Part shown: piece after piece, positions 34,985 to 58,924 of the stretch
How positions within the stretch are numbered: the stretch's first letter is position 1
Layout of the letters: each line of letters starts with the position of its first letter
Assembly (NCBI GenBank): GCA_018268995.1
Contig: JAFDVL010000102.1
Location: 21,696 to 85,695, forward strand
Direction of reading: 5' to 3'
Length of the DNA: 64,000 nucleotides
Source: Acidobacteriota bacterium
Lineage (GTDB): Bacteria; Acidobacteriota; Blastocatellia; RBC074
Notes under the pieces: model-generated
The model's input: the letters and a program-made list of their open reading frames with translations, nothing else
Told to the model about the DNA's origin: nothing
The model's database searches: none
Made by a program: the position numbers and the translations under genes

Positions 34985-35206
34985 CACAGCCCGCGAAGCG
35001 GGTGGTAGCATAAAGCCTGGGGTGCAACCCCAGGTAACATCGGGTTCGGACACATTAGCCCGCGAAGGCGGGCGATAGCTCACGTGGTTGGCGGAGCAGC
35101 TATCGCCTGCTCCGCAGGCTAGGCCTGATGGCCACATTTTTCCTGGGGTTACGGCTCTCGCCTTCACCCCAGGCTTTACTCGGACGCCCGCCTTCGCGGG
35201 CTGGCA
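34985..35206. repeat. GC-rich cluster of at least seven hairpins with internal symmetry; candidate structured ncRNA or REP/MITE-like element.
   Basis: Hairpins GCCCGC-GAAG-GCGGGC occur three times (34988-35003, 35057-35074, 35184-35204). CCTGGGG...CCCCAGG occurs twice (35016-35034, 35142-35173). Central stems GATAGCT...AGCTATC and GCGGAGCAG-CTATCGC-CTGCTCCGC are also present. The 18-mer AGCCCGCGAAGGCGGGCG has its reverse complement about 110 nt downstream. Confidence 0.5.
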
Positions 35207-35302
35207 AACGAAACGCATCAACAAAAAATGACAAGCTGTAAAGGAGGGCGTTTTATTTAGCGTTACGCCCACCTTCACAGTCGGGCTACTGCCTTATTTG
35301 TA

Positions 35303-37714: not shown

Positions 37715-37869
37715 AAACGATCCTTTGCGTATTTTCAGGAAAGTCTGAGAAAGTTCTGATAAAGCGGGGAGAGACTTGCAAGTTCCGGGAACGTCAGATG
37801 CGCATTGCGAATCGTGGCACGTTCCTGAACCTTACAAGTCCTCCCAGTCCGTTCCTAGAGAAAAATTTG

Positions 37870-38931: not shown

Positions 38932-38933
38932 GG

Positions 38934-41900
38934 TTAGTTCTCCCTCCTGGCACTCGCCTCGCCTTTTGATTCAAGTTTGCGCGGTGCCAGTTGTATAACG
39001 TCGGAAAATAGAGCTTCTGTTCTGAATAATGTGGTTGCCGAATTGAAAGCAGGGATGAATGGACTGGACGAAGCTGTGACAGTCGTCGCGTCGCCATCGG
39101 TCACTGCCACACGGACATAGGTAATATCAGGTCGTCCGCTCGCTCCACTGAAATCTTGTTGCAGTGTGAAGGGCTGCCCAGGCAAGAGTGTGGATAACGA
39201 ATTGAGTACCGATGTCAGATCAACCTCAATCAATCGGCTGGCAGGCTGACGAAATGTATCAAAGAACTGATACGTGATTTTGGTCGCGTTTTTGTTTGCA
39301 TCATAAAGAGAAACCTTGACGCGGAAATCATCACGCACCGTCGTCATTTCAACCAATGGCGTCGTCGCTGGATTGCCGATCACGTTTCCATCTCGCGGAA
39401 CAATTTGAATCGCAGGGGAAACGCGCGCGGAGATATTGGCCGCCGCCGTCCCCGGATCACCAGCCGCTTCGGGGCGACCAGGAGACACCCCTCCGGTGAT
39501 AAAGCTGAAGCGGATTTGCGAATCAAACAACGCAGGCAACACCTGTGTTGCAAAGACGCCCTGATCGCGATTGGCAAATGTCCCGGCAAACGTTGGCAGC
39601 GGCGGATTGAACAAAATGCGGAACCGAAGCTGCTCGCCACTAAGCAAAGTCCGATTGATTGAAATCGGCTGTGCCGCAGTACGATCTGGATTCACGGTTG
39701 GATTCAGTGGAACCTCTGCCCCCGAAGCCGGAACCAGGCGCAATGAGAAATAGCGACTGTCATCCACACCACTTAAGTTCGCCGCGTTGGTCACACGAAC
39801 AAACAACGCCGTCGTCAAATTCATCGGCAGACAGCCTGTATTCGTGAGTGTGAACGTCCCAGAAGGTGGCGTCGCATTGCTGCCCGCCACGATGGGGCCA
39901 AGTTGCAGTGCCGTGCCTCCTGCATCATAAGCAACTGTACCAATAGCCGTTCCAGCCAAACCGGTGCTGGTGATCGTGGAGGAATTATTCGCCGAGCTGA
40001 CATCAAAAGTTTGACTGGAAACCGTTGCCTCACTCGTCAAAGTCGTATTTTGCGCAAGGCAAGCGAGGGTTCCAGTGATCGTCAAAACGGCGGTTCCCGG
40101 AGCCAGATTTGAAGTCGAAGCAAAGAATGGATTCCCATCCCGTCCACAAGACCAGCCAGCCGGAGCCGTACACGTAGCCCCTAACAACTGAACAGGTGGC
40201 CGGATGACCGCAGATACAAAACCAGCGGTACTTGGGCCATTGTTGGTCACGTTAATGGTGTACGTCACCGCAGCACCACTGGCGACTGGATTGGGTGCCA
40301 CACTTTGCGTAATCGCCAGATTCGCTGAAGCATTGACCGTTGCGTTCGCATTGGCAGTATTGTTTGTCGTAATCGTGTCCTGCTCATTGCTGCTGACGGA
40401 TGCGGTATTCGTGGCAGTGACCGATTGTGGCGGCGTCCCTGTGGTCGGAATCGTAGGAGCAATGACCACGCTGACAGTCGCGTTGGCACTGGGAACAATC
40501 GTCCCTAAATTACAATTGATTGGCCCGGTTCCGGTGCAACTACCGGCTAATGGCGTGACCGAGACGACTGTAAACTGGCCATTCGGAATCGTCACGTTAT
40601 CCGTTAATGCCACGCCTGTTGCATCATTCGGCCCGTTGTTGGCAACCGTGATTGTGTAGGTCAGATTGTTTCCGACAAAGACGGGATTTGGTGCTGCTGT
40701 GACCGTCACGCCCAAATCGGCAACTGCATTTTGGACGGCCAGACAGGCAGAAAACTCTGACGTATTTCCAGAGCTATCGGTCGCCGTTGCGGTCACAACA
40801 CGCCCGGCAGTCACTGGTGTCGTGACCACCAGGGAAATGTTTCCGACCCCGCTGGCATTGGTTGTGACGTTGGTCCGCCCAACAAATACTTCCCCCTCAC
40901 CATTCCCGGTCGTATCGCAACTGGCATTGCTGAAAACTTCAACGATGTAGGTTGAGTTTGCCGCACTGTTCAATGTCCCAACAATGGTTGTTCCGGTCGT
41001 CCGCGTCAAAGCAGACGTGAGCACCGGATAGTTTTGGAGATTATTCGCACCTGTATCCGTGTCATTCGTGTCATTCGCGGTGACTCCGGCTGCCCCTAAA
41101 TCAATTCCTAATTGTCCATTGTTGTAGATGGAATTATTCAGAATCGAATTATTGACCGTACTGGAGGAAATAAAAGGAGCAGGAAGATAAACACCCTGCG
41201 TGGCGTTATTCGCAATAATGTTCCCCGCACCTGGTGCTGTTCCGCCAATCGTTGTATTCGCGACCCCATCAAGCTGAATTCCCGCCGCATTAAAAGATTC
41301 AGAATTTCCATTCCCCAGCGCACCTGTGCCAGCAGCATCTACGCCAATGTAATTCGATTGAATCACATTACCATCAGCAGCTTCGGGGGTGGCCTCCGTC
41401 CGAGTGGGAACACTTCCGCTGATGCTAATACCACTGCCGAAGTTTCCTGAGATCACATTCCGTGCTCCGGCTGTCGTGCTGCCAATCACATTGTTGGCTG
41501 CAAGAAACAGGTTCACGCCCGTGCCATTTCCGTTGGCGCTGGTTCCAGCACTATTTGTACCAATGTAATTGCCTAATATCCGGTTGCCTGAGCTTGTTTC
41601 AAGAAATAGGAAGATTCCAGAAAAACTATTGCCGGAAATAATATTGCGAGCGGCTGCCGTTGTCCCTCCAATAATGTTATTCGGGGAGCGATCAATTCTG
41701 ATCCCCTCGCCTCCGTTATTCACCAGCGTATTTCCTTCGATGACATTGCTATTTCCGAGGTTGATGTTTATCGCTCCGGCAAAGGTAAACCCGGAAATTG
41801 TCAGACCCCGTATTGTATTAGAGTTCCCCGTCAGGGTGAGGGCATAAGATCCACCAGTAAAATTTGCCCCCTGATTAATCACGATGCTTTGCGAGGCAGG

Positions 41901-43469
41901 TGCGCCTCCCTGCGGAGTGCCATCAATGATGATCGGATTGGTAATATCCGGGAGCGGCGAGTTCAGTAAAATTGTTTGGGTTCCGCCGCCGATATTGAAG
42001 GTAATGGTATCTGAACCCGCCGTTGCATTCGCTTCCTGGATGGCAGCCCGCAGCGTGCAAATAGGGCCACCAGCGCGCGAACTGTCACAAATACCATCGC
42101 CAGGAATCGCATCAGGCAAATCGCCATTTGAGTTCACACTAAACGTTGCTTCCGGCACGGCATTGATCACCATCGGAGCAGCAGCATTTTTACGCAGCAA
42201 AACCAGCCCATCCAAAGCGCTGGCAGTTGTTCGCAGTGCTAATGCCGCCACCAATTCTCCCTGCCCTTCTAAAGATGCCGAGCTGATGTCTTTGCTGGCA
42301 TTATTCGCGAGGACTCGCAATTGATTCGATTGAAGCGTGACTAAGTCATCCACCTTGCTGCCAGAAATTCGAGCACGCATTAAATGCATTGCGCCACTAT
42401 TTTCCTGCCGGGCGGATCGGGCATTTTCAGTTGGCTTGAGCACCTGCGTTATTTGCCACTGCTCAGCCGCGCGGGAACGAACACTTTGCCTGCTGTTGCC
42501 TGTTACCATCTGACTTACGACTGAAATTGAGCCATCCTGCGCAAGCAATGCGATCTGATTTATGTAGACTTGTGCATCATCAACAAAGTGGCCGATTGCT
42601 AGCGAATCGGCTTTCGCCGAAAGCGCTTTGCGCATGATCGTTGGGGTCTGTCTTCCACCTGCAATGACGACCAGCTCGGTGCCAGCAGCAACAGCGAGAT
42701 CAGAAAAGGCATCGCGGGTTAAGTGGGCGAATGCCAGCGAAGTCGCAGGCTGTGACAGGTTATAGGTTTGAGGCTGTGCTTTCCACGCTCCATCGGCAGC
42801 GCTGAACAACTGAATGAATGCACCATCTGCTGTTTGTTCGGCAACGGCGAAATCTGCCAGTCCATCCACGCGATTGAATTCACCACTCCCCAGCGCCGTG
42901 ATCGCCCCTTTTACCTCCGTCACCACTGGCTCGGCGAAGCCACCTTTGCCATCGCCAGCCAGGAAATATAAGACATTACTATTGCGTGCAGCTGCAATCA
43001 CATCAAAATGGCCATCCGCATCAAAATCGCCTGTTTCAAGAAAATCTGGAATTGAAGGAAGAAGGAGATTACTGCCCGCAGAAGAAAAGATTGCGCTTCT
43101 GGATTCCGTGTCGAAACGGGGATAGAGAGCGTTGGCATTTCCGCGATAGGTGGTGATTATTCCGACGCCACCATTTTCATATCCACCGATCAAATCTGTC
43201 ATCCCATCTTCGTTGAAGTCAGCGGTGGCGAGGGCCAGCGGACGAAGACTGTTTACGTCCTGACCTGCCGACTCCAGCAATTGCGCATTGGACAATCGGA
43301 GTGATTTGCTGCTTGATTGAATTTTGATCGTTTTGGTTTCTGGTCTGGGTAAAACAGTTGTCGCGGGCTTCCTGATGAACGTGGCCAATCCACCAGCGAC
43401 AATCGCAATTGAAGTTAAAGTTAATAGGACTATTTTTGTTGTGAGTTTATGTAACAAACGAACAGACAT
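38934..43469 (-). CDS. Giant (1511 aa) cell-surface protein with FG-GAP/VCBS-like repeats, right-handed parallel β-helix repeats and DUF11 ('conserved repeat domain') units.
   Basis: N-terminal TM anchor. FG-GAP-like DFNEDGMTDLIGG and GDFDADGHFDVIAA. A long Gly/Asn-rich β-helix region (NNIIGGTTAAARNIISGN..., the 'GxxxNxI' periodicity). DUF11-like LTYTITVANNGPNDATGV and VTYTINVTNNGPSTAG. Confidence 0.7.
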   Translation of the reverse strand: MSVRLLHKLTTKIVLLTLTSIAIVAGGLATFIRKPATTVLPRPETKTIKIQSSSKSLRLSNAQLLESAGQDVNSLRPLALATADFNEDGMTDLIGGYENGGVGIITTYRGNANALYPRFDTESRSAIFSSAGSNLLLPSIPDFLETGDFDADGHFDVIAAARNSNVLYFLAGDGKGGFAEPVVTEVKGAITALGSGEFNRVDGLADFAVAEQTADGAFIQLFSAADGAWKAQPQTYNLSQPATSLAFAHLTRDAFSDLAVAAGTELVVIAGGRQTPTIMRKALSAKADSLAIGHFVDDAQVYINQIALLAQDGSISVVSQMVTGNSRQSVRSRAAEQWQITQVLKPTENARSARQENSGAMHLMRARISGSKVDDLVTLQSNQLRVLANNASKDISSASLEGQGELVAALALRTTASALDGLVLLRKNAAAPMVINAVPEATFSVNSNGDLPDAIPGDGICDSSRAGGPICTLRAAIQEANATAGSDTITFNIGGGTQTILLNSPLPDITNPIIIDGTPQGGAPASQSIVINQGANFTGGSYALTLTGNSNTIRGLTISGFTFAGAININLGNSNVIEGNTLVNNGGEGIRIDRSPNNIIGGTTAAARNIISGNSFSGIFLFLETSSGNRILGNYIGTNSAGTSANGNGTGVNLFLAANNVIGSTTAGARNVISGNFGSGISISGSVPTRTEATPEAADGNVIQSNYIGVDAAGTGALGNGNSESFNAAGIQLDGVANTTIGGTAPGAGNIIANNATQGVYLPAPFISSSTVNNSILNNSIYNNGQLGIDLGAAGVTANDTNDTDTGANNLQNYPVLTSALTRTTGTTIVGTLNSAANSTYIVEVFSNASCDTTGNGEGEVFVGRTNVTTNASGVGNISLVVTTPVTAGRVVTATATDSSGNTSEFSACLAVQNAVADLGVTVTAAPNPVFVGNNLTYTITVANNGPNDATGVALTDNVTIPNGQFTVVSVTPLAGSCTGTGPINCNLGTIVPSANATVSVVIAPTIPTTGTPPQSVTATNTASVSSNEQDTITTNNTANANATVNASANLAITQSVAPNPVASGAAVTYTINVTNNGPSTAGFVSAVIRPPVQLLGATCTAPAGWSCGRDGNPFFASTSNLAPGTAVLTITGTLACLAQNTTLTSEATVSSQTFDVSSANNSSTITSTGLAGTAIGTVAYDAGGTALQLGPIVAGSNATPPSGTFTLTNTGCLPMNLTTALFVRVTNAANLSGVDDSRYFSLRLVPASGAEVPLNPTVNPDRTAAQPISINRTLLSGEQLRFRILFNPPLPTFAGTFANRDQGVFATQVLPALFDSQIRFSFITGGVSPGRPEAAGDPGTAAANISARVSPAIQIVPRDGNVIGNPATTPLVEMTTVRDDFRVKVSLYDANKNATKITYQFFDTFRQPASRLIEVDLTSVLNSLSTLLPGQPFTLQQDFSGASGRPDITYVRVAVTDGDATTVTASSSPFIPAFNSATTLFRTEALFSDVIQLAPRKLESKGEASARREN

Positions 43470-44401: not shown

Positions 44402-44496
44402 ATGGTTGACAAGTTCGCAGCTGAATGCGATAAGCTGCGGTGAGGTTAACTCCCAACAAGATAAGCGAGATTTTCCTTCGAAAACAGGAGGCCCCG

Positions 44497-45270
44497 ATGA
44501 CGATGGAAGAAAATTATAGCTTGCAACGACTACTTACCTTGAGAAAGCTGACGCGCGCGATTACAGAACTTTTGCGCGGGCAAATGAAAGAGCATTTGAC
44601 GACAATCGCACCGTTGTTACGTCCTAAAACTGTTCTTGGTGAATATATCAAAAGCAGTACACGCGAAATGACGCCGGGTGCGAATTTAGCTTTTAAAGAC
44701 CTGCAAACTCTATACGAAACCGTCGCAGCCAACAAACCTTTTCTTTTAGCAAAAGAATTAGATTCTTCGCTGGACATCATGAACACCACCATTGAAATCA
44801 CGCCGATGGAATATAGCTATGAAGCGCAGGCCGAAAATCATCGGAAAGTGATTTCAATCACCTCTCCGCTCAAAAACATATTGACCTATTCGGGGTATGG
44901 GCCAACGAAGCTCAAAGAGTTGCTGGCGGATCGGTATCGTCAGCCGGAAAAAGTGCAGGAATACATTGTGCATTATTTAGCCCTGCACGTCACGATTGCG
45001 CGGCAACCGGGACTTTCTCAGATGTTGTCGGCACTGCACTTTCCAATCACCACGATTCGCTTACCCGAATTTGGCGAATTGCCAATTACCTGCATCAACT
45101 CCTCTATCAGTACGATTCGCCCCTCTGATCCGGTCTTAATTGAAAGTACCGAGTTTTCGGGACTGGACGCTTTTGAAGAAGTCGTCAATGTGACAGACAT
45201 CGCGAATTTGCAGGATTCTCTCAAAGAACGATTGCGTGAAATAGCCAAAAACCACGGCGAAAATCTTTGA
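44497..45270 (+). CDS. Hypothetical protein.
   Basis: ATG at 44497 preceded by AGGAGG. I recognise no motifs. Confidence 0.45.
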   Translation: MTMEENYSLQRLLTLRKLTRAITELLRGQMKEHLTTIAPLLRPKTVLGEYIKSSTREMTPGANLAFKDLQTLYETVAANKPFLLAKELDSSLDIMNTTIEITPMEYSYEAQAENHRKVISITSPLKNILTYSGYGPTKLKELLADRYRQPEKVQEYIVHYLALHVTIARQPGLSQMLSALHFPITTIRLPEFGELPITCINSSISTIRPSDPVLIESTEFSGLDAFEEVVNVTDIANLQDSLKERLREIAKNHGENL

Positions 45271-47312: not shown

Positions 47313-49154
47313 CTATGCTTTATCCTTCAAGCCGGGATGTTTGCGCACCGTGATCGTTTGAATCAAGTCAGCATCCAAGCCGCGCCGGACGTCATACCCC
47401 ATCACATTTTCGCGCCACGGATGACCACGCTTTTTCCCTTTGTCATCCACACTGTTGACGTCATCGTCCGAGAGCTTGAATCCGGTCGCAACGTTATTTT
47501 CCCCACCGCTGCCACGATGAAATAATCCCAGAATGTGGCCTATTTCGTGCGCCATATTTTGCCCCGAATCATGTTCCGGTGCTCCGACCGTCCAATCGGA
47601 AGGATAGATCACCCCAAAGAGCCGTTTCTTCAGGTCATCCGAAGAGAAACTCGCTTGCACTTTTTTGCGCGCCTTGACATAAGCCGCATCCGAAGAATTT
47701 GAGCGGTTCTGATGCGAAAAGGATTTCATCTTCACTTTCTTTGCTGCGGCATCCGGTAGGACGCCACTAGGTAAAACCAATGACGTGCTGGGAAAACCAT
47801 CTAATTCTTCCGTCTTCCCTGAGACGCTTTGCAAGTCGGTCGCAGCGGCATTGGTTCCGGTGGTGGAACGGACAAAGGCAACATTGAGAACACTGGGGTT
47901 GAAATTCAAGCGCGTCGCAATCGGGGAGACATTATTATTCACGTTCACCGTCCAGTTATCTTTTTCCGCTGTCACCGTGAAGATTCCTTTATTTGCCGAA
48001 GCTACAGCATTATCCCAAGTCGTAGCATCAGGATCAGGAACAAATTCAATGCCGCATTGCCACCAGATAATCTGAGCAACCTGCATAAAATGAAGGACAT
48101 CGCTTGGCGACACCGTCGGGCTACGTTCTGGATGATTTGTCTTGTCTACGCCATTGATAATGTTGATGCGATAACGAATTTCTTTGATAACGCCGACCCA
48201 AGCGCGATACGTTGCCAGCAATGGGCCTTTTTCACCATCCCAACGTGCTTCAATCACCGCCATTTTATCGGTCGGAGCAGATGTGCCTCGCACCTTTACC
48301 CAAATGCCCTGATTGGAACCGACGAATTCAATCGGGCCTTCTTTGATGTGCCAGGTCACTTTGCTGACCTCTAAATCCCCCGGCCAAACCCAAGTGATTG
48401 CAATCTTCGCCGCTTTGGTTTCCAAATCAGGATCGCTTTTTTTCAAAACTGGAATCAGAGAAGGATTCACCAAGATATTCCAAGCCATATCAGGGGTCAG
48501 CGTGATGGCTTTGGCAAATTCAGTTTCCTTGCCGGGTTCCAATTCGGCTTTCAACGCTTCGATGGCGGCAGGACGGGGCGGCAATTTGCTCGGAGAAATG
48601 GGGACGGGAACAACGGGACAGACTTCAATTCTTGGCTCAACCGCTTTGCCTGAAATTGTTGTGAATGTGCTGCTGCCATTATTCTGCCGACTGACCAGGA
48701 TACCCTTGGTTTTGTCTGGCGTGGTGGTCGCTTTGACTTCCAACTGCTTGACGGTCACGTAGGCTTGAAAATACTGATGATCAGGAAAAAACAGCCAGCC
48801 TTTGATAACTGAGGAGGAAATCGGGAAGTCTGTGTATTCGTTGGTGAAGGGATATTTCAGCGTTAGTTTTGCTTCGCCCAAATCGTCATCGCTGAAGACA
48901 TCCACATCAATTCCCTTGATGGAAATTTCGATCTTGTCACCAGGCTTCTTATTTGTCAGATCAAGTTCGACTGACCATTTATCTTCCGGCAACTTGATCG
49001 TGTCTTTATCGCGCACCTCAAATTCATGATTGGGATCACCAACTGTTTTCCCGTCCACCTTGGCGGTTAATTTCCATTCTCCAGCACCAATGATGTCGCC
49101 GCTTTCATTCGCGTAGACTTTATTGAATGTTACTTTGATCTTCGTTACTGGCAT
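47313..49154 (-). CDS. Metzincin-type zinc metalloprotease domain protein; candidate T6SS cargo effector.
   Basis: 613 aa with no signal peptide. Near the C-terminus are the extended zinc motif HEIGHILGLFH (HExxHxxGxxH) and a Met-turn-like NVMGY about 40 aa later. The N-terminal 450 aa is β-rich and of unknown fold. Confidence 0.65.
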   Translation of the reverse strand: MPVTKIKVTFNKVYANESGDIIGAGEWKLTAKVDGKTVGDPNHEFEVRDKDTIKLPEDKWSVELDLTNKKPGDKIEISIKGIDVDVFSDDDLGEAKLTLKYPFTNEYTDFPISSSVIKGWLFFPDHQYFQAYVTVKQLEVKATTTPDKTKGILVSRQNNGSSTFTTISGKAVEPRIEVCPVVPVPISPSKLPPRPAAIEALKAELEPGKETEFAKAITLTPDMAWNILVNPSLIPVLKKSDPDLETKAAKIAITWVWPGDLEVSKVTWHIKEGPIEFVGSNQGIWVKVRGTSAPTDKMAVIEARWDGEKGPLLATYRAWVGVIKEIRYRINIINGVDKTNHPERSPTVSPSDVLHFMQVAQIIWWQCGIEFVPDPDATTWDNAVASANKGIFTVTAEKDNWTVNVNNNVSPIATRLNFNPSVLNVAFVRSTTGTNAAATDLQSVSGKTEELDGFPSTSLVLPSGVLPDAAAKKVKMKSFSHQNRSNSSDAAYVKARKKVQASFSSDDLKKRLFGVIYPSDWTVGAPEHDSGQNMAHEIGHILGLFHRGSGGENNVATGFKLSDDDVNSVDDKGKKRGHPWRENVMGYDVRRGLDADLIQTITVRKHPGLKDKA

Positions 49155-49947: not shown

Positions 49948-52278
49948 TCAGGCTTTTGTCCAGGCTTCTTTATCCAAATCGGGGAAGGTCACTTTGCAAC
50001 TGCCCGGATCAATACCGGCAACAAGAGCATAGCCTTTTTCATCCAGTGTGCCTTCCGCCAGAGTTTGTCCATCGGGCAACGTGACACGGTAGCGCAGCCC
50101 CGGAACAGGCTTGCCATCTTCATTCACGACCTCAATTTCGATCTTGGATTTCTTTTCTTTGTTCTCTTCAGAGTTGGGATTATGCGAGGGCGCATTCGCC
50201 GCAGCTTGTTCTGATGCGGATTTGGCCTGCCATTGCTGTTTGTACGTTGGCGCTTTGTCGCCCGGATCAGCATTGTCGGCAATGTCAGCTTCAGCAGGTG
50301 CGGTGGGCGAAACCAACATTCCAGCCATTCCGGGCAAAGCAGCACCACCACTGTTGATCATCACCATCGTGCCTTGAATAAAGACGCCTGCCGGAAGCAA
50401 GGTAATAAAATTGCCGCCGCATTTCAGCGTCAGGCCGCTGCTGGATTCGATGACAACCTGCATCCCCTTAACGTAGATGTTGCCAGTCGTGGATTCAGTG
50501 TGATTGCCAGAAATTTCCTCTGTCACATTGCCTTTGACGGCGACAGATTGCGCCCCAGTGATTTCAATAGCCTCTTTGCCTTTAATTTTCAAGTGATGAT
50601 CACGGCCAATTTCTTCGACTTGATCTCGTTTGATAACGATTTGCTGATCACGTTCGATCAGCTCTTTTTGGTCGCGCTTGACGATTAAATGGGTGTCGCG
50701 GCCAATCCATTCGCGGCGATCATTTTTGACGCGCAAGTCCATGTCCTTCTCGGCATGCATGAACAATTGCTCATCGCCTTTTTTATCTTCCATCCGAATT
50801 TCGTTGAAGCCGCCACCGCCCTTGGAAGAATAGGTTTTGACGGTACTCTTGGTCATTTCATCGGGCAGTTTGTAAGGCGGCATGGAATCCGCGTTATAAA
50901 CGCGTCCCACGATAATCGGACGATCTGGATCACCTTCCAGAAAATCTACGATGACTTCCTGCCCGATGCGTGGCAGCGAGATTTGCCCCCATCCTTTTCC
51001 GGCCCACGTCGTAGACACGCGAATCCAGCAGGAACTCATGGCATCGTATTTCCCTTCCCGATCCCAATGGAATTGCACTTTCACGCGTCCGTACTTGTCA
51101 GTGTAAATTTCTTCGCCCGGCGGGCCGACAACGATGGCTGTCTGCGAACCAGCGACGACGGGAACCGGGGTAATGCGCGGTGAGCGAAATGGCGTCGGGT
51201 GCTGGATACATTGAAACGAATTGTAATAACTCAGCGTTGTCTCCCCCGCATCCGAGCTGCGCCAGCTTTCGCCTAGATCGGCGGAATGTTGGATTGAGGT
51301 CAAAACATACGCCTTGTTAAAGTCGCGACGATAGTGATCGCGAAGGTCAAATCTGTAGCCCGTGACTAAACCTCGACAGGTGCTTGCGCCGTTCACGACA
51401 ACTTGTGGCAAATCTTCTTCCTGAATACGAATGCCAACCAGACGCTCGCCTTCATCTTTGGTCTTGTATTCACCGGGATAATCGTAAATTTCCAATTTAC
51501 TCTCGCCCTTACCGGACAGATTTGATGTCAGATCAAGGCCAGGGTTTTCAAAATTGAAATCGCGGACTGTGTATTGACCGGGCCGAACCTCACGGCTCAT
51601 GGTGAAATCTGTGATGACATCTTCGTCGCGTTCCTGCCCGATGACCGTTTTGTAACTGACCATATCCTGCAACGGGCAAGGTTTGAATTCATTGGCGTTG
51701 TTGGCAAGGATGAGGGTGTGTTTTTCTTTTTCGTGCTCGAAGAAGTAAAAGATGCCTTCTTCTTCCATCAGGCGCGAGACAAAGTTGAAATCCGTTTCGC
51801 GGTACTGCACGCAGTATTCGCGTTTGGCGAAGTTGCCTTGCAGCTTGTTTTTGAAATCGGCAAATCCGTTGTCCTTGAAAATCTTCTCGAGAATTTCAGG
51901 CACGGTCATTTCCTGAAAAATACGGCAATCACTGGTTCGCGTCAGCATCCAGAACCAGGGCACCAGCGAGGCAGAATAATGCGTGAAAACAGTTGGCTTG
52001 TCGCCTTCTTCCAGCGTGGAAGAGCCGCCCTGCGAAAAGGAACTGATCAAACCATTGATGAATCGTTCAGAGCCGTCTGGCAAGACAATCGCGATGGTGG
52101 CGCGCTTGCCAACAATGTCTTCAAATTTGATGCTGCGATTTTCCGACATCAGCCGCAGACTGAAATGGAAGAGTCGCGAAATTCCTTCCTGCCCATCGAA
52201 TCCCTGCAACAACAATTCGTCCTCGCCCAGCGGCGTGTAAATGCGAATGATGCGATTTTCCTGTTTATATTCTGGCAA
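49948..52278 (-). CDS. vgrG: Type VI secretion system spike protein VgrG.
   Basis: The N-terminus ENRIIRIYTPLGEDELLLQGFDGQEGISRLFHFSLRLMS is the canonical VgrG/gp27 start. Length is 776 aa. The start is TTG at 52278 with an AGGAGG RBS. A C-terminal extension of about 70 aa follows a Lys/Glu-rich linker. Confidence 0.9.
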   Translation of the reverse strand: MPEYKQENRIIRIYTPLGEDELLLQGFDGQEGISRLFHFSLRLMSENRSIKFEDIVGKRATIAIVLPDGSERFINGLISSFSQGGSSTLEEGDKPTVFTHYSASLVPWFWMLTRTSDCRIFQEMTVPEILEKIFKDNGFADFKNKLQGNFAKREYCVQYRETDFNFVSRLMEEEGIFYFFEHEKEKHTLILANNANEFKPCPLQDMVSYKTVIGQERDEDVITDFTMSREVRPGQYTVRDFNFENPGLDLTSNLSGKGESKLEIYDYPGEYKTKDEGERLVGIRIQEEDLPQVVVNGASTCRGLVTGYRFDLRDHYRRDFNKAYVLTSIQHSADLGESWRSSDAGETTLSYYNSFQCIQHPTPFRSPRITPVPVVAGSQTAIVVGPPGEEIYTDKYGRVKVQFHWDREGKYDAMSSCWIRVSTTWAGKGWGQISLPRIGQEVIVDFLEGDPDRPIIVGRVYNADSMPPYKLPDEMTKSTVKTYSSKGGGGFNEIRMEDKKGDEQLFMHAEKDMDLRVKNDRREWIGRDTHLIVKRDQKELIERDQQIVIKRDQVEEIGRDHHLKIKGKEAIEITGAQSVAVKGNVTEEISGNHTESTTGNIYVKGMQVVIESSSGLTLKCGGNFITLLPAGVFIQGTMVMINSGGAALPGMAGMLVSPTAPAEADIADNADPGDKAPTYKQQWQAKSASEQAAANAPSHNPNSEENKEKKSKIEIEVVNEDGKPVPGLRYRVTLPDGQTLAEGTLDEKGYALVAGIDPGSCKVTFPDLDKEAWTKA

Positions 52279-52288
52279 TGCCTGCCTC

Positions 52289-53416
52289 CTAATTCGTCAA
52301 TTCAAAATGATGCAGATCCACGTTGGCTGAATAAAACGTCGCGCCCCAACGAAACTTGTGTTTGTGTAATTGTTCCAGCAAACTCCACTCCAGCGTAAAG
52401 AAACCCTGTTTCCAGGCAATTAGCTTTGGAGCCTTTGCCAGCAAGACTTCAAGGGGTTCCGACCGCTTCGGGATAGGCTTTCCAGCGGCTTTCAATTTCT
52501 CATCTTCCTTCTGACGCTCATCCTGGATTCGTTTCAACTCGGATGCGACCTTTTTGACAAACTCATCGTTCACGTCTTTGACATCTTTCCACATCGCCTG
52601 TGGACTGGTGTTCCATCGCGTCAGACTCAAATCAACTTTCGCCTTCCCGGTAAACTCAATCAGAAAATCCCACTCCGCCTTCGATAGAATTGGATTGCTC
52701 AGAGATTCAATGTCAATCGCATTGCCGATGGCATGTTCGCTGATTGTGCCCAGACGATAGCGATAACCGCTGTCCTTCATTGGACGTGGATTGAATCCGC
52801 CTGTTTTGAACGGCTTGTCATACGCAACACGAACTTTGGCAAGTGCCGCTTTGAGTTCTGCTGAATTTCCACGCAGGATCAGCTCTGACACATCGTTGAC
52901 GCCTTTTTTTTGATAGGCCTTTCGCACCCAGCGGTAGAAAACTTTTTGCGCCTCCGGGTTCTCTCCCATCTCAATCAATTTGCGAAGGCCTTTTGTGGAT
53001 TCCAATTCCGTATCCGACTCGTAGGAGTAATCTTCATACTCAGCGGCGGAGCCAAAATACTCGTTCCGATAGGCAATATAATCATCCACATTCTTGAGGT
53101 TGATTTTCCCCTTCAGCAACTTGAATTCTGATTCCTCTGCTGCCCGAACCAGCGCTTTCCGCATTGCGCGAAAGATAATCATTTGCAATGGATCATCCGC
53201 AGTGAACTCAGGGCAGGGCAAGGTTTCCCAACTCAACCGAAGGCGATGGTGCGGATCGGCCAAATCTTTCATGCCCACCGAACCTGGCGTATCACCAAGC
53301 AAAAGGCGTGGCGCATCGGGATTGCCAAAATCGTTGTGGCCAAGTGGTCCCGGCGTAAGGGGCGAAAGCTTGAATGGGTCGCGGCCACAGGAAATGATGT
53401 TGCGTGAGTTCCCCAT
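52289..53416 (-). CDS. Peptidase M15 (VanY/L,D- or D,D-peptidase) domain protein; candidate peptidoglycan-targeting T6SS effector.
   Basis: M15 zinc motifs are ISEHAIGNAIDIE (SxHxxGxAxD) and the C-terminal KFRWGATFYSANVDLHHFE (WGG...D.xHFE). There is no signal peptide. The N-terminal extension of about 200 aa is unknown. Confidence 0.65.
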   Translation of the reverse strand: MGNSRNIISCGRDPFKLSPLTPGPLGHNDFGNPDAPRLLLGDTPGSVGMKDLADPHHRLRLSWETLPCPEFTADDPLQMIIFRAMRKALVRAAEESEFKLLKGKINLKNVDDYIAYRNEYFGSAAEYEDYSYESDTELESTKGLRKLIEMGENPEAQKVFYRWVRKAYQKKGVNDVSELILRGNSAELKAALAKVRVAYDKPFKTGGFNPRPMKDSGYRYRLGTISEHAIGNAIDIESLSNPILSKAEWDFLIEFTGKAKVDLSLTRWNTSPQAMWKDVKDVNDEFVKKVASELKRIQDERQKEDEKLKAAGKPIPKRSEPLEVLLAKAPKLIAWKQGFFTLEWSLLEQLHKHKFRWGATFYSANVDLHHFELTN

Positions 53417-53995
53417 CTATGCGCCCTCCTGCTTAGATGGAAACTGTTGATGATGCAAAAACACCCGCAAATCTGAAGCGGAGAAAAATACTAATCGCAC
53501 TTCTTTAATCTGATCATCGCTGGCCAAAAACGAGGCGATAGCTTTCGATGAAACAGCGGCAGCCTCTTCGCGGGGATAGCCGTAAACACCTGTCGAAATC
53601 GCAGGAAAAGCGATGGATTCCAAGCTATTCTCTGCCGCTAATTTCAGCGAGTTGTGATAGCAGGCAGCCAGATAAGCTGCATCCTGTTCACCGTGTCTGC
53701 CTTTGATCGGGCCAACGGTGTGAATGACAAACCGTGCAGGCAAATTTCCAGCAGTTGTCAGTACGGCATCTCCGGTCGGAAGCCCATCTGGGAAGCGTGT
53801 CTGGCGGATTTCCTGACACGCTTCCAGAATGGATGGCCCACCGTTTCTGTGAATTGCACCGTCCACCCCACCACCACCCATCAATGTCCAATTCGCAGCA
53901 TTCACGACAGCATCAACGGCTTGTGCCGTGATGTCGCCTTGCAATGCAATGACGCGACCGGAGAGAAATGAATGGGTTGTTTGTGGCGATTGCAT
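53417..53995 (-). CDS. Macro-domain protein (ADP-ribose binding / O-acetyl-ADP-ribose deacetylase-like, YmdB type).
   Basis: GDITAQAVDAVVNAANWTLMGGGGVDGAIHRNGG ... FPAISTGVYGYP are the classic macro-domain motifs. The stop is directly adjacent to the ATG of the M15 gene (TAGATG). Confidence 0.85.
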   Translation of the reverse strand: MQSPQTTHSFLSGRVIALQGDITAQAVDAVVNAANWTLMGGGGVDGAIHRNGGPSILEACQEIRQTRFPDGLPTGDAVLTTAGNLPARFVIHTVGPIKGRHGEQDAAYLAACYHNSLKLAAENSLESIAFPAISTGVYGYPREEAAAVSSKAIASFLASDDQIKEVRLVFFSASDLRVFLHHQQFPSKQEGA

Positions 53996-54027: not shown

Positions 54028-56685
54028 TTACGAGATGTCGTATTTGAAGTGTTCGTCTTCCGTGAGACTAACGTAAACCTTCGAGACGGCTTCTCCCGTT
54101 GCCATACGCGTCAGGAACTCACCGCTCATTTCAGGCAGTAATGTTCCATTGAGCACGTTGTGAACGTTGCGCGCGCCGCTGTCCACATCGGTACACCGTT
54201 TCGCGACGGCTTCCACCACGGCATCGTCGTAGGAGAAGTCTGCGCCGTGATTTTCTTCGATTCGCTTCGCAATCTTGGAGAGCTGCAACTTGATAATGAG
54301 CCGCAAAATTTCATCCGAGATTGGATAGTACGGCGCGATGGTCATACGTCCGAGTAACGCAGGCTTGAACGCCTTCACTAACTCAGGCCGTAAGGCTTCG
54401 ATCAACCCCTCAGGCTCAGGCTTTGTATCCGGGTCGGCGCACAGCTTCATGATCGTGTCCGTCCCAACGTTCGAGGTCAGCAGAATAATCGTATTTTTAA
54501 AATCAATCTCACGTCCTTCGCCATCTTCCAGCACGCCCTTGTCAAAGACCTGATAGAAAAGCTCCATCACGTCTGGATGAGCTTTTTCAACTTCATCCAG
54601 CAGGACGACCGAGTATGGTTTGCGGCGGACAGCTTCCGTCAAGACACCGCCTTCGCCGTACCCGACATAGCCTGGAGGTGAGCCTTTGAGACTGGAAACA
54701 GTGTGCGCTTCCTGATACTCGCTCATGTTGATCGAGATCAAATTGCGTTCACCGCCGTAGAGTGAATCGGCCAATGCCAGGCCCGTTTCGGTCTTGCCAA
54801 CACCGCTGGTTCCGACCAATAAAAATACACCGATGGGGCGTTTGGGATCAGTCAAACCAGCACGCGAGGTCTTGATGCGTTCGGAAATTGCGTTCAGGGC
54901 ATGATCCTGACCGATAACGCGTTTCTTCAGGGTATCGGAAAGATGTAAGATCGCCTGAATTTCATCCGCTACCATTTTACCAACCGGAATGCCTGTCCAG
55001 CCTGAAATCACTTCGGCAATGGTCTGTGACGTCACAACCGGCTGCATCAATGGCGTCTCGCCCTGAACCGTTTTCAGTTCCGCATTCAGGTTGGCGAGGT
55101 CAGTACGCAAGGCTTGCGCCCCTTCTGTCGAATGCTCGGCAGCCATTGCTTCCAGCTTTTCACGAATTTCGCGAATCTTACCAATCAGGTTTCGTTCCTG
55201 TTCCCATTGTGCATTCAGTTTTGCCAATGACTCTTCAGTGGTGGTGCGTTCTGCATTGAGTTCGGCAATGCGCTCTTCGTGTGCAGCACCAGTGATGGCT
55301 TCACGTTCGAGGACATTGATTTCAGTCGTCAGATTTGCAATGCGACGATTGGAATCTTCAATCGCAGGCGGCGTTGCTCCCTGGCCGATGGCAACTTTGG
55401 CGCAAGCGGTGTCAAGCACACTGACGGATTTATCAGGTAATTGCCGCCCTGTGATGTAACGACTGGATAAGCGCACGGAATCTTCAACTGCCTCATCCAA
55501 AATGCGAACGTGGTGATGGTTTTCCAGCGCGCTGACAATACCACGCATCATCACAATGCCTTTGGCTTCGTCCGGCTCTTCGACTTTGACGACCTGAAAG
55601 CGGCGAGCAAGCGCGGCGTCCTTCTCAAAGTATTTTTTGTACTCGGCCCAGGTGGTCGCCGCAATGGTTCTGAGTTCGCCGCGTGCCAGTGCAGGCTTCA
55701 GCAAATTCGCCGCATCGTTCTGTCCGGCCTGTCCGCCCGCGCCGATCATCGTATGTGCTTCGTCAATAAAAATAATGATCGGAGTGGGCGAGGATTTGAC
55801 TTCGTCAATCACTGACTTCAAGCGATTTTCAAATTCCCCCTTGATTCCGGCACCCGCTTGAAGCAGGCCTAAATCAAGAGTTCGCACAATGACATTCTTC
55901 AGCGGGTCAGGCACATCGCCTTGGGCAATACGAAGGGCGAAGCCTTCAACAACTGCGGTCTTACCAACCCCCGCTTCACCCGTCAGAATTGGGTTGTTCT
56001 GGCGGCGACGCGTCAGAATGTCAACGACCTGACGGACTTCAAATTCACGGCCCAACACCGGATCAATTTTGCCGGAACGAGCCTTAGCAGTCAGGTCAAT
56101 CGTGAATTGATCCAACGCCTTTGTTTTGCCCGGTGCACCAATTGCTCCGCCTTCAGTTGCCTCACCGCCCCCCTCCATCGGTTGCGAGGTGAAGCCTTCT
56201 GCGGCACGAGCTTCGGCTGAACCTGTGGTCAAGGCAGCAAAGTTTTCGCGCAGTTCGTCCACTTTGATTTTTGTGAAGTCTTTGGAAATCTCACGCGCAA
56301 GACGAATCAATTGCTCATTCGTCAATAAAGCCAACAGCAAATGGCCAGATCGAACTTTCGCCTCACCGTATTCCACCGACGCCAATAACCACGCGTCCTG
56401 AAACAAGGTTGGAATGTATGGGGAAATCGAAGGTGTGCGCGCATTCCCAGTCTTCAAGCGATCCATTGCTACTGTGATGTCCTTGCCCAACCGTGACGCA
56501 TTTAGCTCATAGTGACGAAGGATTTTATTCAGATCGGTATCAGTGGATTCGAGCAATTTGACAAAGAGATGCTCAATTTCGACATCGTAATTGGTACGAG
56601 ACAAGCAAAGTCCGGCAGCACCTTCAAGCGCGCTTCGTGTCGTATCATTTAATCGGGCTACAAGTGATTTTAAACTTACATTCAT
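54028..56685 (-). CDS. clpV: Type VI secretion AAA+ ATPase ClpV (TssH).
   Basis: ClpB-like protein of 885 aa. The N-domain is LKSLVARLNDTTRSALEGAAGLC. There are two AAA modules (GEAGVGKTAVVEG; GTSGVGKTETGLALA). It lies within the T6SS operon. ATG at 56685. Confidence 0.9.
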   Translation of the reverse strand: MNVSLKSLVARLNDTTRSALEGAAGLCLSRTNYDVEIEHLFVKLLESTDTDLNKILRHYELNASRLGKDITVAMDRLKTGNARTPSISPYIPTLFQDAWLLASVEYGEAKVRSGHLLLALLTNEQLIRLAREISKDFTKIKVDELRENFAALTTGSAEARAAEGFTSQPMEGGGEATEGGAIGAPGKTKALDQFTIDLTAKARSGKIDPVLGREFEVRQVVDILTRRRQNNPILTGEAGVGKTAVVEGFALRIAQGDVPDPLKNVIVRTLDLGLLQAGAGIKGEFENRLKSVIDEVKSSPTPIIIFIDEAHTMIGAGGQAGQNDAANLLKPALARGELRTIAATTWAEYKKYFEKDAALARRFQVVKVEEPDEAKGIVMMRGIVSALENHHHVRILDEAVEDSVRLSSRYITGRQLPDKSVSVLDTACAKVAIGQGATPPAIEDSNRRIANLTTEINVLEREAITGAAHEERIAELNAERTTTEESLAKLNAQWEQERNLIGKIREIREKLEAMAAEHSTEGAQALRTDLANLNAELKTVQGETPLMQPVVTSQTIAEVISGWTGIPVGKMVADEIQAILHLSDTLKKRVIGQDHALNAISERIKTSRAGLTDPKRPIGVFLLVGTSGVGKTETGLALADSLYGGERNLISINMSEYQEAHTVSSLKGSPPGYVGYGEGGVLTEAVRRKPYSVVLLDEVEKAHPDVMELFYQVFDKGVLEDGEGREIDFKNTIILLTSNVGTDTIMKLCADPDTKPEPEGLIEALRPELVKAFKPALLGRMTIAPYYPISDEILRLIIKLQLSKIAKRIEENHGADFSYDDAVVEAVAKRCTDVDSGARNVHNVLNGTLLPEMSGEFLTRMATGEAVSKVYVSLTEDEHFKYDIS

Positions 56686-56730
56686 GATCAACCTCGATTC
56701 CAGGGGCCTCTTTAGTAATTTAGTGGATCG

Positions 56731-57591
56731 TTATTTTTTCGGCGGCGCATACGTCGAAAGTGGGTACGCCTTCAGCCCAAAGGTTTCCGGGCTTTCTGCC
56801 AAGATGGCAGCGGCAAAGAACCTGGGCAGATAATGAACCCCTTCGTCTAAAAAAGCCTTGTCGAATTTCTTGGCGTCTGGCTTCGCTAAGATCGCCCAGA
56901 GTTCACCGCCTGAGTCGTGCTCTTTAATCAATTCAGCAAAATCGCGTTTTACATTTGCAGTGCCACGGTTGTACGCAAGCATGGCCAGCGCGGCGGAGAT
57001 GCCATCCTTCCCAAATTCCGCCATTCGCGCTTTGATAAATCGAGCCGCCGCGTTTGCCCCTTTCTCGACATCGCAAAGGGCATCCGCTTTTACGCCTAAA
57101 CTTGTGGCAGATGCTGGCAGGATGGCAAACATCCCTTTCCCTTTGCCCTTCGCAGGGCAGGGTTGGAATTCGGATTCCAACAACGCAACCGCATTCCCTA
57201 ACGTTTCCAGGACTTTCTCTTTTTCAAACTCACCATTGATAATAGGAGCATATTGCACCGCACGCTCAAAGACTTTGTTCAGGTCTTCACCGCCCGACTT
57301 GGGATCAGCAGCGCCAACGCGTACGGCATAGACATCAACCCATTTTTTGATCAACTGGACGCCTTCTGCTGAAACCACCAAAGGCTTTTCAGGGGATAAC
57401 ATCCAACCAAGATTTCCCGCGTAATTTGAGATAAAACTGGCCCGTGCCTGGTCATTCATTTTCAAATACTGTGATGCGCCACTTGTTGCAGCCTCTGAGG
57501 CTTTGGGCGCTGAGGTATTGCTTTGGGCGAGGATCGGCATGGCTAAAAACAGCAGTGAGGTTAGCATGACCGATGGGATTAACTTCTTCAT
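56731..57591 (-). CDS. Secreted lytic transglycosylase (SLT-domain) protein.
   Basis: Signal peptide MKKLIPSVMLTSLLFLAMPILAQS. SLT-like motifs are LLESEFQPCPAKGKGKGMFAI (ES-x-F...G-LMQ variant) and LAMLAYNRGTANV (AYNAG-like). Confidence 0.55.
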   Translation of the reverse strand: MKKLIPSVMLTSLLFLAMPILAQSNTSAPKASEAATSGASQYLKMNDQARASFISNYAGNLGWMLSPEKPLVVSAEGVQLIKKWVDVYAVRVGAADPKSGGEDLNKVFERAVQYAPIINGEFEKEKVLETLGNAVALLESEFQPCPAKGKGKGMFAILPASATSLGVKADALCDVEKGANAAARFIKARMAEFGKDGISAALAMLAYNRGTANVKRDFAELIKEHDSGGELWAILAKPDAKKFDKAFLDEGVHYLPRFFAAAILAESPETFGLKAYPLSTYAPPKK

Positions 57592-57604
57592 TTTTCCTGA
57601 CTCC

Positions 57605-58924
57605 TTATCGTTTGACGAAATAAAAATCTCCATCAAGGGAGGTATTTTCCCAGGGCACTTGTTGACCATTTGTTTTTTCTTTAACTGCAATTCGGGTTCG
57701 TTTCAGTACTTCTTCTACTTTTAAATTCGGCTCGCGCATGTGCCTTAATAATTCCTGCGTGTACAGACCATTTTTCCCATCGCCATCGCTGGCAACTTCT
57801 CCTGGCCCCGTGGCATAAGCCACAACGGTTCCACTTGGTGCCGACATCACCGCGAGTCCACGTGAAAGTGAGCGCGTACGTTGCACAAAAGGGTTGTTGC
57901 GACAGGCGTCCAGAATCACGATATTCAAACGGCTCCCAGCAGATTCCAATTCGTTCATGATCCGGCCTGCATCCACGGCTTCATATTCGGCATCGCCTTC
58001 CTTTTCAATCTTTGCTCCGACAGGAACCAGATAATTTACGCCTTTGACCTGAATTCCGTGTCCCGCAAAATAGAACAAGGCCACGCTGCCGCGCTGTATT
58101 TTATTGCCAAACGCGCGCAGGCTTTCTTCCAGTTCGCGTTTGTTCAGGTTGGTATATTGCATGACCTCAAAACCTGTTTCACGCAGGGATTGCGCCATCG
58201 CATTAGCATCGTTAGCAGGATTCGCCAACGGGCCAACCTGATAGTTGCTATTCCCGATCACCAAAGCCAGACGATTTGTGCTACTGATTTCATTGACCGA
58301 GCTGGATGAAATGCCCGAATTTGTGACGACAGTTGAATTCCCGTCACTGCGAGCAGGCGTACTGACAGCAGGATTCTCATTCGGCTTCTTTTCCGGCGGC
58401 AGAACAGGCCCGGTCGGCTGATTTGTATTGTTGCGGACGGGTGGATTTGTCGGCGCAGTATTTTTGCTAATGATTACTGGCCCTTTCACTTTCAAAGTAA
58501 AAAAGCCGCTTTGGTTGTTGCGCGGGCCAAAAACGCGCATGAGCACATTTTGACGAGTGTCCAGTCGAAGTTTTGCATCCTTCCGGTCTCCACCGGAGGA
58601 AGCATCAAACTTGATCAGTGTTTGTGCATCAGCATCCAGAATTTCGACGCCGATGTTTGACCATTGCTCATTGGTTTTCACCTCAAGAGAAAAACTGACA
58701 TCGCCCGGCCCGGCGGTAAAAGTATAGAAGCGGTTGATGGAAACATTCGGAGCAATATTCCCTTTCAATTCCTGATTGAACAATGGCATGGGATTATCTT
58801 TGCTGCTTGGTTGTGCAAACACCAGTTGAGCGACACAAAGACAGCCCAATGCAATCCAACGCAACCTGCAAGACAATCGGTTTGCGCTGTTGGAACTTCG
58901 ATGTAAGGCGTTCAATAATTTCAT
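57605..58924 (-). CDS. Secreted caspase-family (peptidase C14) protease with an N-terminal β-sandwich pre-domain.
   Basis: Signal peptide. The caspase His/Cys dyad is ALFYFAGHGIQ ... IVILDACRNNPF. It lies inside the T6SS operon. Confidence 0.8.
   Translation of the reverse strand: MKLLNALHRSSNSANRLSCRLRWIALGCLCVAQLVFAQPSSKDNPMPLFNQELKGNIAPNVSINRFYTFTAGPGDVSFSLEVKTNEQWSNIGVEILDADAQTLIKFDASSGGDRKDAKLRLDTRQNVLMRVFGPRNNQSGFFTLKVKGPVIISKNTAPTNPPVRNNTNQPTGPVLPPEKKPNENPAVSTPARSDGNSTVVTNSGISSSSVNEISSTNRLALVIGNSNYQVGPLANPANDANAMAQSLRETGFEVMQYTNLNKRELEESLRAFGNKIQRGSVALFYFAGHGIQVKGVNYLVPVGAKIEKEGDAEYEAVDAGRIMNELESAGSRLNIVILDACRNNPFVQRTRSLSRGLAVMSAPSGTVVAYATGPGEVASDGDGKNGLYTQELLRHMREPNLKVEEVLKRTRIAVKEKTNGQQVPWENTSLDGDFYFVKR

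Follow-up and report, generated by a model that had tools for sequence, protein, structure and literature searches.

Ting et al. are said to have described in 2018 the Tre1-Tri1 pair of Serratia proteamaculans, in which an ADP-ribosyltransferase (ART) effector of a type VI secretion system (T6SS) is matched by an ADP-ribosylhydrolase as its immunity protein. Immunity proteins of the ADP-ribosylglycohydrolase type (Imm-ADP-RGHD) are a recognised class (PMC3482391). In DarT-DarG, a macro-domain enzyme is the catalytic antidote of the adjoining toxin of the ART superfamily (PMC8883491), and bacterial PARGs, hydrolases with the macrodomain fold, protect from the T6SS ART toxin RhsP2 by co-expression (PMC11833690). 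RES enzymes of the MbcT type produce ADP-ribose-1''-phosphate (ADPR-1''-P), and MacroD enzymes hydrolyse phosphate derivatives of ADP-ribose (PMC8883491). A phage macro-domain phosphatase defeats RES-mediated NAD+ depletion only together with a pathway that rebuilds NAD+ (bioRxiv 10.64898/2026.01.28.702374). Here, we analysed a macro-domain gene in a stretch of 64,000 nucleotides from an Acidobacteriota bacterium (contig JAFDVL010000102.1), referred to as the window hereafter, where the gene lies in a T6SS operon between clpV and a gene for an M15-like peptidase that precedes vgrG. A sequence-only reading had proposed the macro protein as an immunity or reversal enzyme for an ART activity in the N-terminal 200 residues of the M15 protein or elsewhere, or as a regulator of the T6SS. 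We found the macro gene to be a fixed resident of this kind of operon, next to which a RES-like gene stands in sister loci. In the reading that we favour, and about which we are evenly divided, the macro protein is the antidote half of a RES-macro module, left as an orphan in the window after the loss of the RES gene, and the M15 protein is an unrelated T6SS cargo effector.

The window macro protein has in common with E. coli YmdB and the MacroD-type macrodomains, which comprise O-acetyl-ADP-ribose deacetylases and hydrolases of ADP-ribose-phosphate and mono-ADP-ribosyl groups, a single macro domain of about 180-190 amino acids (aa) and the conserved motifs. It differs from YmdB, a housekeeping or RNase III-modulating protein, in being fixed in a T6SS effector slot and in being paired with a RES-like gene in sister loci. 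The resemblance to Tre1-Tri1 and Imm-ADP-RGHD lies in a cytoplasmic hydrolase beside a candidate T6SS-linked, NAD+-using toxin, a hydrolase that could undo the toxin chemistry rather than only bind the toxin. Unlike in Tre1-Tri1, the hydrolase is a macro protein and not of the DraG/ARH fold, the toxin candidate is RES-like and not of the ART-RSE type, and the toxin is absent from the window. DarT is a distinct ART family and DarG has an extra C-terminal toxin-binding domain, whereas the window macro protein is single-domain and belongs to a T6SS operon. The PARGs that protect against RhsP2, the genomic immunity gene of which encodes a binder, form a subfamily different from MacroD. To RES-Xre toxin-antitoxin (TA) systems, MbcT-MbcA among them, and to the aRES defence, the locus is linked by the predicted MbcT fold and the RES homology of the neighbour in sister loci; for the action of a macro enzyme on ADPR-1''-P, which RES enzymes produce, the phage macro phosphatase Adpp is an experimental precedent. 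However, neither an Xre/MbcA-type antitoxin nor NARP1 genes are found here, the macro protein is of the YmdB type and not of the Poa1p type, and the setting is a T6SS.

A MacroD-type gene in a variable T6SS slot

The macro open reading frame matches the Pfam family Macro (PF01661, E 2e-43, covering 1-117 of 118 positions) and scores 225.6 bits against the NCBIfam equivalog NF001664 'O-acetyl-ADP-ribose deacetylase', for which the cutoff is 200. Among solved structures, E. coli YmdB (5CB3/1SPV) comes closest, at E 2e-48. We used the motifs NAAN, GGGVDGAIH and (I/V)STG(V/I)YG(Y/F)P to define the MacroD/YmdB type; the ADP-ribose-binding and catalytic motifs of the window protein are all intact (NAAN, GGGGVDGAIH and FPAISTGVYGYP), and NAANWTLMGGGGVDGAIH is present. 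Neither a signal peptide nor a transmembrane (TM) segment was seen by eye. Judged from its sequence, the protein is a cytoplasmic, active-looking hydrolase of ADP-ribose derivatives of the MacroD type with intact catalytic residues; on this point the earlier reading, which had named inactive residues as a ground for giving up its proposal, stands. The family is very large and conservative, with more than 7,900 homologues at E <1e-30, many of which are 65-70% identical. PADLOC gave no DarTG-type or other defence-system match for the macro protein. Assignment to DarTG was rejected for a single-domain macro protein of 192 aa with ClpV and M15 as neighbours and without a PADLOC match.

We looked up the contexts of eight distinct macro homologues. 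Six of them (69-79% identical) were found in the order ClpV, zero or one gene, Macro, cargo, VgrG and PG_binding_1; the remaining two, P0154 and P0148, are encoded in ordinary metabolic (non-T6SS) contexts and are 71-72% identical to the window macro protein. Two further slot macros (L093 and L094) came from look-ups of the RES-like proteins introduced below. The macro gene takes the same slot in the sister loci L001, L084-L088 and L090-L094, and the cargo that follows it is an M15 protein in the window and L001, a 284-aa protein with a GH19 protein in L084/85 and L093, a membrane protein of 325-330 aa in L086, L090-92 and L094, and a 277-aa protein with a glycine zipper together with a 133-aa protein in L087/88. 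Since the macro gene is constant while the cargo changes, the M15 gene is one of several interchangeable cargoes. Pfam searches gave nothing informative for the variable cargo (174, 277, 133, 325 and 330 aa), nor for three sequences described below, namely family X, the lipoprotein of L063 and the C terminus of the L063 Rhs protein. In a neighbour-joining (NJ) tree of 125 macro proteins, the slot macros lie within one clade of 27 leaves, with P0154 and P0148 outside. Raw identity did not separate slot macros from housekeeping macros, which only the unsupported NJ topology tells apart. In this one acidobacterial T6SS operon, of the Blastocatellia type, the macro gene has a fixed place after clpV and before the cargo that precedes vgrG.

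A RES-like neighbour of the macro gene in sister loci

A family of 273-288 aa with only 17 clusters among 5.8 billion proteins adjoins the macro gene in every locus examined, upstream in L001, L087/88 and L094 and downstream in L084/85 and L093, with gaps of about 10-25 nt. Two further members are on contigs of the same size as macro matches (P0249/P0131 and P0246/P0133). Direct searches of this core family, comprising Pfam at E up to 10, a profile search of the PDB and PADLOC, found nothing significant. An AF2 model of the family (P0242 family; pLDDT 77, pTM 0.78) was matched by Foldseek to the Mycobacterium tuberculosis RES toxin MbcT (6FKG, E 3.8e-8, probability 1.0, TM-score 0.62), with a weak tail of matches containing the T6SS NADases Tse6 and Tne2 as well as PARP13. 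A profile search over 1.84 billion representatives extended the family to 176 clusters, and Pfam RES (PF08808), the sole family match, was found in 23 of 107 aligned members of the extended family. Arg73 and Glu102 are invariant and position 200 is Ser or Thr in all 17 members, which is the R...E...S signature. The model and these remote matches suggest a RES-domain, ART-related family, which we call RES-like. RES enzymes, to which the NAD+ phosphorylase MbcT belongs, consume NAD+. No match to RES-like homologues was found in annotated plasmids.

In the window, tblastn detected neither a RES-like gene nor a remnant of one, and the gap between clpV and the macro gene is 32 nt. Both sub-branches of the slot-macro clade include loci with the RES gene, namely L094 next to L090/92 on one side and L001, L084, L087 and L093 on the other. 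This distribution favours a RES-macro pair in the ancestor, from which the RES gene was lost repeatedly.

The proposed pairing of the macro gene with the M15 gene

The macro gene does lie between clpV and the M15 and vgrG genes with its stop codon TAG abutting the ATG of the M15 gene, as the sequence-only reading had noted; the coordinates, the Shine-Dalgarno (SD) sequence and the junction were read on the minus strand, which runs ...AGGAGGGCGCATAGATGGGG... with AGGAGG 8 nt upstream of the ATG. This abutment is not kept in L001, the 80%-identical sister locus, where the two genes are separated by 84 nt, and abutting stop and start codons of this kind are ordinary operon packing.

We collected 83 loci of the M15 family, corresponding to 64 non-redundant groups. 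The proposal of a conserved macro-M15 pair did not survive this comparison: of the non-redundant M15 loci, 38 extend 1.5 kb or more upstream, and only two of these have a macro gene, namely L001 and L063 from a distant high-GC lineage, to which a short third contig, L030, can be added. The earlier reading had itself named, as a sign against the pair, syntenic vgrG-M15 loci from which the macro gene is absent, and such ClpV-M15-VgrG loci do exist (L002, L017 and L027); nothing intervenes in L002, and a caspase/TPR gene stands at the expected place of the macro gene in L017. Conversely, the macro gene is kept without M15 in L084-L094, and the macro-M15 pair was rejected as a conserved unit.

A dedicated partnership, in which the macro protein would be the immunity or reversal enzyme of an adjacent M15 protein hiding an ART activity, would fit the abutting codons with their SD sequence in the window, the macro gene upstream of M15 in L001 as well, and the unrelated L063/L030 lineage, in which the macro gene again precedes M15, separated from it by a lipoprotein gene. 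Structure comparison, however, gave no ART-like fold or match anywhere in the M15 protein: a disordered leader takes up residues 1-62, and the model has nothing but helices in residues 69-200. We therefore rejected the proposal of an ART within the first 200 aa. Besides the rarity of the combination and the ClpV-M15-VgrG loci devoid of a macro gene, the macro gene stays in the slot when GH19 or other cargo replaces M15, and a cytoplasmic hydrolase cannot counter a peptidase acting in the periplasm. We regard such a partnership as very improbable and largely refuted, and the comparison suggests that the juxtaposition in the window is incidental, with no functional tie. Thus, the proposed reversal of an ART activity fails for the M15 protein, and its second half, an ART activity elsewhere, has gained a candidate in the RES-domain, ART-related gene that stands next to the macro gene in sister loci and is absent from the window.

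In L063/L030, the macro gene belongs to another NJ branch and is located between a T6SS-associated family-X gene and the lipoprotein-M15 genes. By a rough estimate from the rarity of macro genes, the chance of this recurrence is about 0.05, of borderline significance and found under M15-based ascertainment. L063 also encodes a Tpt1/KptA RNA 2'-phosphotransferase of the ART superfamily (6855-7409; PF01885, E 4e-37; also L043 5161-5712), located after an Rhs toxin and a 143-aa gene and 5.6 kb downstream of the macro gene.

Possible roles of the macro protein

In the RES-macro reading, the two proteins would form a toxin/antidote module, most probably an effector of the T6SS and the enzyme that confers immunity to it, alternatively a TA cassette lodged in the operon. 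The RES-like protein would be an NAD+-using toxin. The macro protein would act on the toxin product, either by removing ADP-ribose from the modified target or by converting ADPR-1''-P, and would not bind the toxin. The window genome would have lost the RES gene and kept the macro gene as an orphan antidote, abutting and co-transcribed with the present slot cargo; catalytic immunity needs no co-evolution with the toxin and would stay useful after toxin loss. The general logic of the sequence-only reading, a macro protein as the antidote to a toxin using NAD+ or ADP-ribose, is probably the best explanation, for a RES-type partner that this genome lacks.

Several points weigh against this reading. 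The contexts come from a handful of metagenome contigs, and the NJ macro tree carries no support values. The window macro protein is as similar to the non-T6SS macros as to some slot macros (68-70%), and at the motif level it is indistinguishable from housekeeping YmdB orthologues. The RES assignment depends on a medium-confidence model and transitive homology; the RES-like protein has no recognisable T6SS delivery marker, and no other Pfam domain was found in any member. The macro gene stands without a RES gene in at least four distinct loci (the window, L086, L090/91 and L092) and may thus be older than the RES gene or unconnected with it. Were the RES-like protein an MbcT-like NAD+ phosphorylase, the macro protein alone could not restore NAD+, and immunity would be fully plausible only if the RES branch ADP-ribosylates a macromolecule, as ParT-type RES toxins do. 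As to the M15 effector, no immunity-like gene for it is visible in the window, where no homologue of the lipoprotein-like M15 neighbour described below was found.

The macro gene might instead be a housekeeping passenger, the YmdB/MacroD orthologue of the lineage for turnover of O-acetyl-ADP-ribose or ADP-ribose-phosphate, captured by chance in an ancestral T6SS operon and inherited vertically, with the RES gene later or fortuitous. The score above the equivalog cutoff, the alignment to YmdB with all motifs kept, the many close homologues and the equally similar macros in metabolic contexts would all agree with such an origin, a single NJ clade would fit one capture followed by vertical descent, and the macro gene persists without a RES gene in four loci. 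A mere passenger would not be expected to keep its position while the genes on either side turn over, nor does it sit well with the tight operon packing, with the clade-restricted RES-like family adjoining the macro gene in every locus with examinable context, or with a macro gene of a different branch appearing again in a T6SS-type neighbourhood (L063/L030). We therefore consider this origin unlikely, while giving it real weight. The proposal that the macro protein regulates the T6SS would make it the eraser, and the RES-like protein, where there is one, the writer, of a reversible ADP-ribosylation of some component or regulator of the T6SS, by a DraT/DraG-like logic. Its place between clpV and vgrG is kept across the clade, the macro protein is cytoplasmic as are the sheath, the baseplate and ClpV, and the idea is compatible with known biology; a review from 2026 on the accessory genes of T6SSs names neither a macro or ADP-ribose component nor an ADP-ribose-based regulator. 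This regulation would have no known precedent, though, about half of the loci, among them the window, lack its writer, the slot is the variable effector slot and not the regulatory part of the cluster, and RES enzymes of known function are toxins or defence NADases. Such a switch thus appears improbable.

The M15 protein as a candidate cargo effector

The Pfam match of the 375-aa M15 protein is marginal, and its 198 homologues constitute a clear family. By profile or fold match it belongs to the LAS/M15 family, with a VanY/LAS fold (AF2 model, pLDDT 83). Residues H228, D235 and H370 are invariant in 29 aligned M15 sequences and correspond to the zinc triad H-x6-D...H of LAS enzymes (SEH228AIGNAID235 and DLH369H370FE). 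Neither a signal peptide nor a TM or hydrophobic segment was found. Flanking sequence of 6 kb or more is available for 32 non-redundant M15 loci, 23 of which have T6SS core genes; this makes it a T6SS-linked family, with members in Acidobacteriota, Verrucomicrobiota, Phycisphaerae and one gammaproteobacterial metagenome-assembled genome.

Many M15 members and the GH19 proteins of the same slot start with a common leader (R.PGP.CR..L..EID.GTLCRQ.SP.PGP.G, about 35 aa), in which two Cys residues are conserved. It is found in the GH19 slot loci L084 (9450-9560) and L093 (8877-8990), and at the M15 N termini in L008, L009, L031-L036, L040, L041, L045, L053, L054, L058 and L072; the window M15 protein has the variant 'SR..C..DPF.LSP.TPGPLG.ND', seen in the alignment. 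M15 and GH19 are unrelated families of peptidoglycan hydrolases, both encoded next to vgrG and with this common leader, which, from the sequences compared, is a candidate marker of T6SS cargo delivery for soil phyla. The M15-like module is also fused to DUF4157 in P0023 (610 aa) and to LysM in P0055 (533 aa), which suggests a portable unit with a toxin or hydrolase function; DUF4157 marks toxins of extracellular contractile injection systems (PMC8213781). A lipoprotein-like family without a Pfam match adjoins M15 in a high-GC subgroup (L063 1261-1968, L030 243-1004, L046 3236-3907, L055 233-970, L064 769-1563, L071 9169-9831 and L052 5800-6492) and is a candidate periplasmic immunity protein.

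The linkage to T6SS genes, the variability of the slot, the leader in common with GH19, the DUF4157 fusion, the lipoprotein neighbour in one subgroup and the absence of a signal peptide or TM segment argue for a cargo role, and the sequence-only view of the M15 protein as a peptidoglycan-peptidase-like effector candidate holds. As a candidate T6SS cargo effector, it would consist of a disordered leader for delivery, a helical domain and a zinc peptidase that may cut peptidoglycan peptides in the periplasm of the target. A comparable protein is TagX, a T6SS-associated L,D-endopeptidase of Acinetobacter and Burkholderia (PMC5061870, PMC13584744), which is likewise a VanY/LAS-fold peptidase encoded in a T6SS cluster. 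The M15 gene could encode a TagX-like housekeeping hydrolase that opens the producer's own wall for T6SS assembly and not an effector. M15 genes are indeed found inside T6SS core clusters, by ClpV, TssK or TssM, in many phyla, the folds resemble each other (PMC13584744), and no immunity gene flanks M15 in the window, L001, L002 and L017. TagX, in contrast, is anchored in the inner membrane by N-terminal TM helices (PMC13584744) and is a fixed accessory gene, whereas the soluble window M15 protein begins with a leader of the cargo type, and sister loci that have the same apparatus dispense with it and encode unrelated cargo in its stead. The GH19 cargo with the same leader, the toxin-type DUF4157 fusion, the lipoprotein partner in one M15 subgroup and the SLT gene already present in the cluster also speak against a role in assembly, which we find rather unlikely.

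Organisation of the T6SS operon and neighbouring genes

The acidobacterial T6SS cluster occupies about 45-63 kb of the window on the minus strand (Table 1). Downstream of the M15 gene, the vgrG gene follows the M15 stop codon after 10 nt and has its own AGGAGG. No promoter-like site was found on the minus strand of the clpV-vgrG interval, and terminator-like matches there were not above shuffled expectation. The clpV, macro, M15 and vgrG genes look co-transcribed in view of their tight packing and of the lack of a promoter-like or convincing terminator-like site between them.

Table 1. Features of the T6SS cluster in the window, with the residues and subregions of the M15 protein.
Feature	Position	Strand	Evidence or remark
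tssF	61109-62965	-	T6SS gene
tssG	60028-61077	-	T6SS gene
CsgG-like gene (lipoprotein)	58954-59946	-	Pfam
Caspase C14 gene	57605-58924	-	Pfam
SLT transglycosylase gene	56731-57690	-	Pfam
clpV/tssH, T6SS ATPase	54028-56691	-	NCBIfam TIGR03345 VI_ClpV1, 1318 bits; Pfam AAA_2, ClpB_D2-small
MacroD/YmdB-type macro gene, 192 aa	53417-53995	-	Pfam PF01661, NCBIfam NF001664
Junction of macro and M15 genes	53414-53430	-	SD AGGAGG 53430-53425; stop TAG 53419-53417; ATG 53416-53414
LAS/M15-like peptidase gene, 375 aa	52289-53416	-	Pfam (marginal), alignment, AF2 model
M15 leader, aa 1-62	53231-53416	-	Predicted disordered; pLDDT <50 for residues 1-62
M15 conserved body, aa 63-375	52289-53230	-	Helical domain (aa ~69-200) and C-terminal LAS/M15 zinc-peptidase core
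Putative Zn ligand H228	52733-52735	-	Alignment
Putative Zn ligand D235	52712-52714	-	Alignment
Putative Zn ligand H370	52307-52309	-	Alignment
vgrG/tssI spike gene	49948-52278	-	TIGR03361, 660 bits; Pfam Phage_GPD, Phage_base_V, Gp5_trimer_C
PG_binding_1 protein, 245 aa	49188-49925	-	Pfam
613-aa protein with HEIGHxxGxxH zincin motif	47313-49154	-	Weak Pfam Matrixin match and motif in translation
Two paralogous proteins, 263 aa and 299 aa	45585-47292	-	37% identical; lipoprotein-like signal in the 299-aa protein
PAAR protein, 98 aa	45277-45573	-	tblastn PAAR match; PAAR at the same place in L001 and L086

The CsgG-like, caspase C14 and SLT genes that separate tssG from clpV are unusual accessories of a T6SS cluster; this set is clade-specific and is kept in L001, L084, L087, L090 and L093. 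Between the CsgG-like and caspase genes, sister clusters have a gene for an AbiEii-like nucleotidyltransferase (L084 2150-3399 and L001 2689-3372), accompanied in L084 by a PD-(D/E)xK protein, and these insertions indicate that defence or TA cassettes do lodge in this operon. In L093 (10033-12121), vgrG is split into three open reading frames (102, 92 and 382 aa), either as a pseudogene or by an assembly error. The 245-aa PG_binding_1 protein has the domain at its C terminus and lacks a signal peptide. Its gene comes immediately after vgrG in every sister locus, irrespective of the cargo, and the protein could be an adaptor or a fixed effector. The 613-aa HEIGH zincin is a probable second effector, for which the two paralogues after it are probable immunity genes; both the zincin and its arrangement with the paralogue pair are kept in L001, L086 and L088.

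Further downstream of the T6SS genes (34353-43469, minus strand), the window encodes a 1511-aa FG-GAP/DUF11/beta-helix protein, an Ig-like protein, a caspase-TPR protein of 803 aa that is the second caspase, and a CHAP-domain protein; the giant 1511-aa protein also comes after the cluster in L001, L093 and L094. Family X, of about 255-276 aa and without a Pfam match, recurs in T6SS clusters (window 44440-45270, plus strand; L001 18382-19146 and L002 20045-20851, both minus strand; L008 3189-3956; L032 7711-8478; L063 19-666). Often its gene immediately precedes tssK, and in L063 it immediately precedes the macro gene; this is probably an undescribed T6SS-associated gene.

Implications

The main interest lies in the sister loci and less in the window itself. 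If the RES-macro module is a T6SS effector-immunity pair, macro would be the third fold among the few catalytic immunity proteins, RES-type NAD+ enzymes would join the T6SS arsenal, and the retention of a housekeeping-looking, highly conserved enzyme in an effector slot would be explained. Such immunity would be a variant of known enzymatic immunity and antitoxin systems (Tri1, DarG). In a bolder version, to which we give only tentative credence, the macro gene would be a conserved accessory gene of the Blastocatellia-type T6SS that processes a co-encoded RES product. Its protein would be the first T6SS immunity enzyme with a macro domain (and the first directed at RES), and after loss of the toxin it would persist as an orphan that protects with a broad spectrum; more radically, it would be one half of a reversible ADP-ribosylation switch on the secretion machine. 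Apart from the macro gene, the analysis defines a large uncharacterised family of T6SS-linked LAS/M15 peptidase cargo in soil phyla, and the leader common to M15 and GH19 proteins could help to detect T6SS effectors in Acidobacteriota, Verrucomicrobiota and their relatives.

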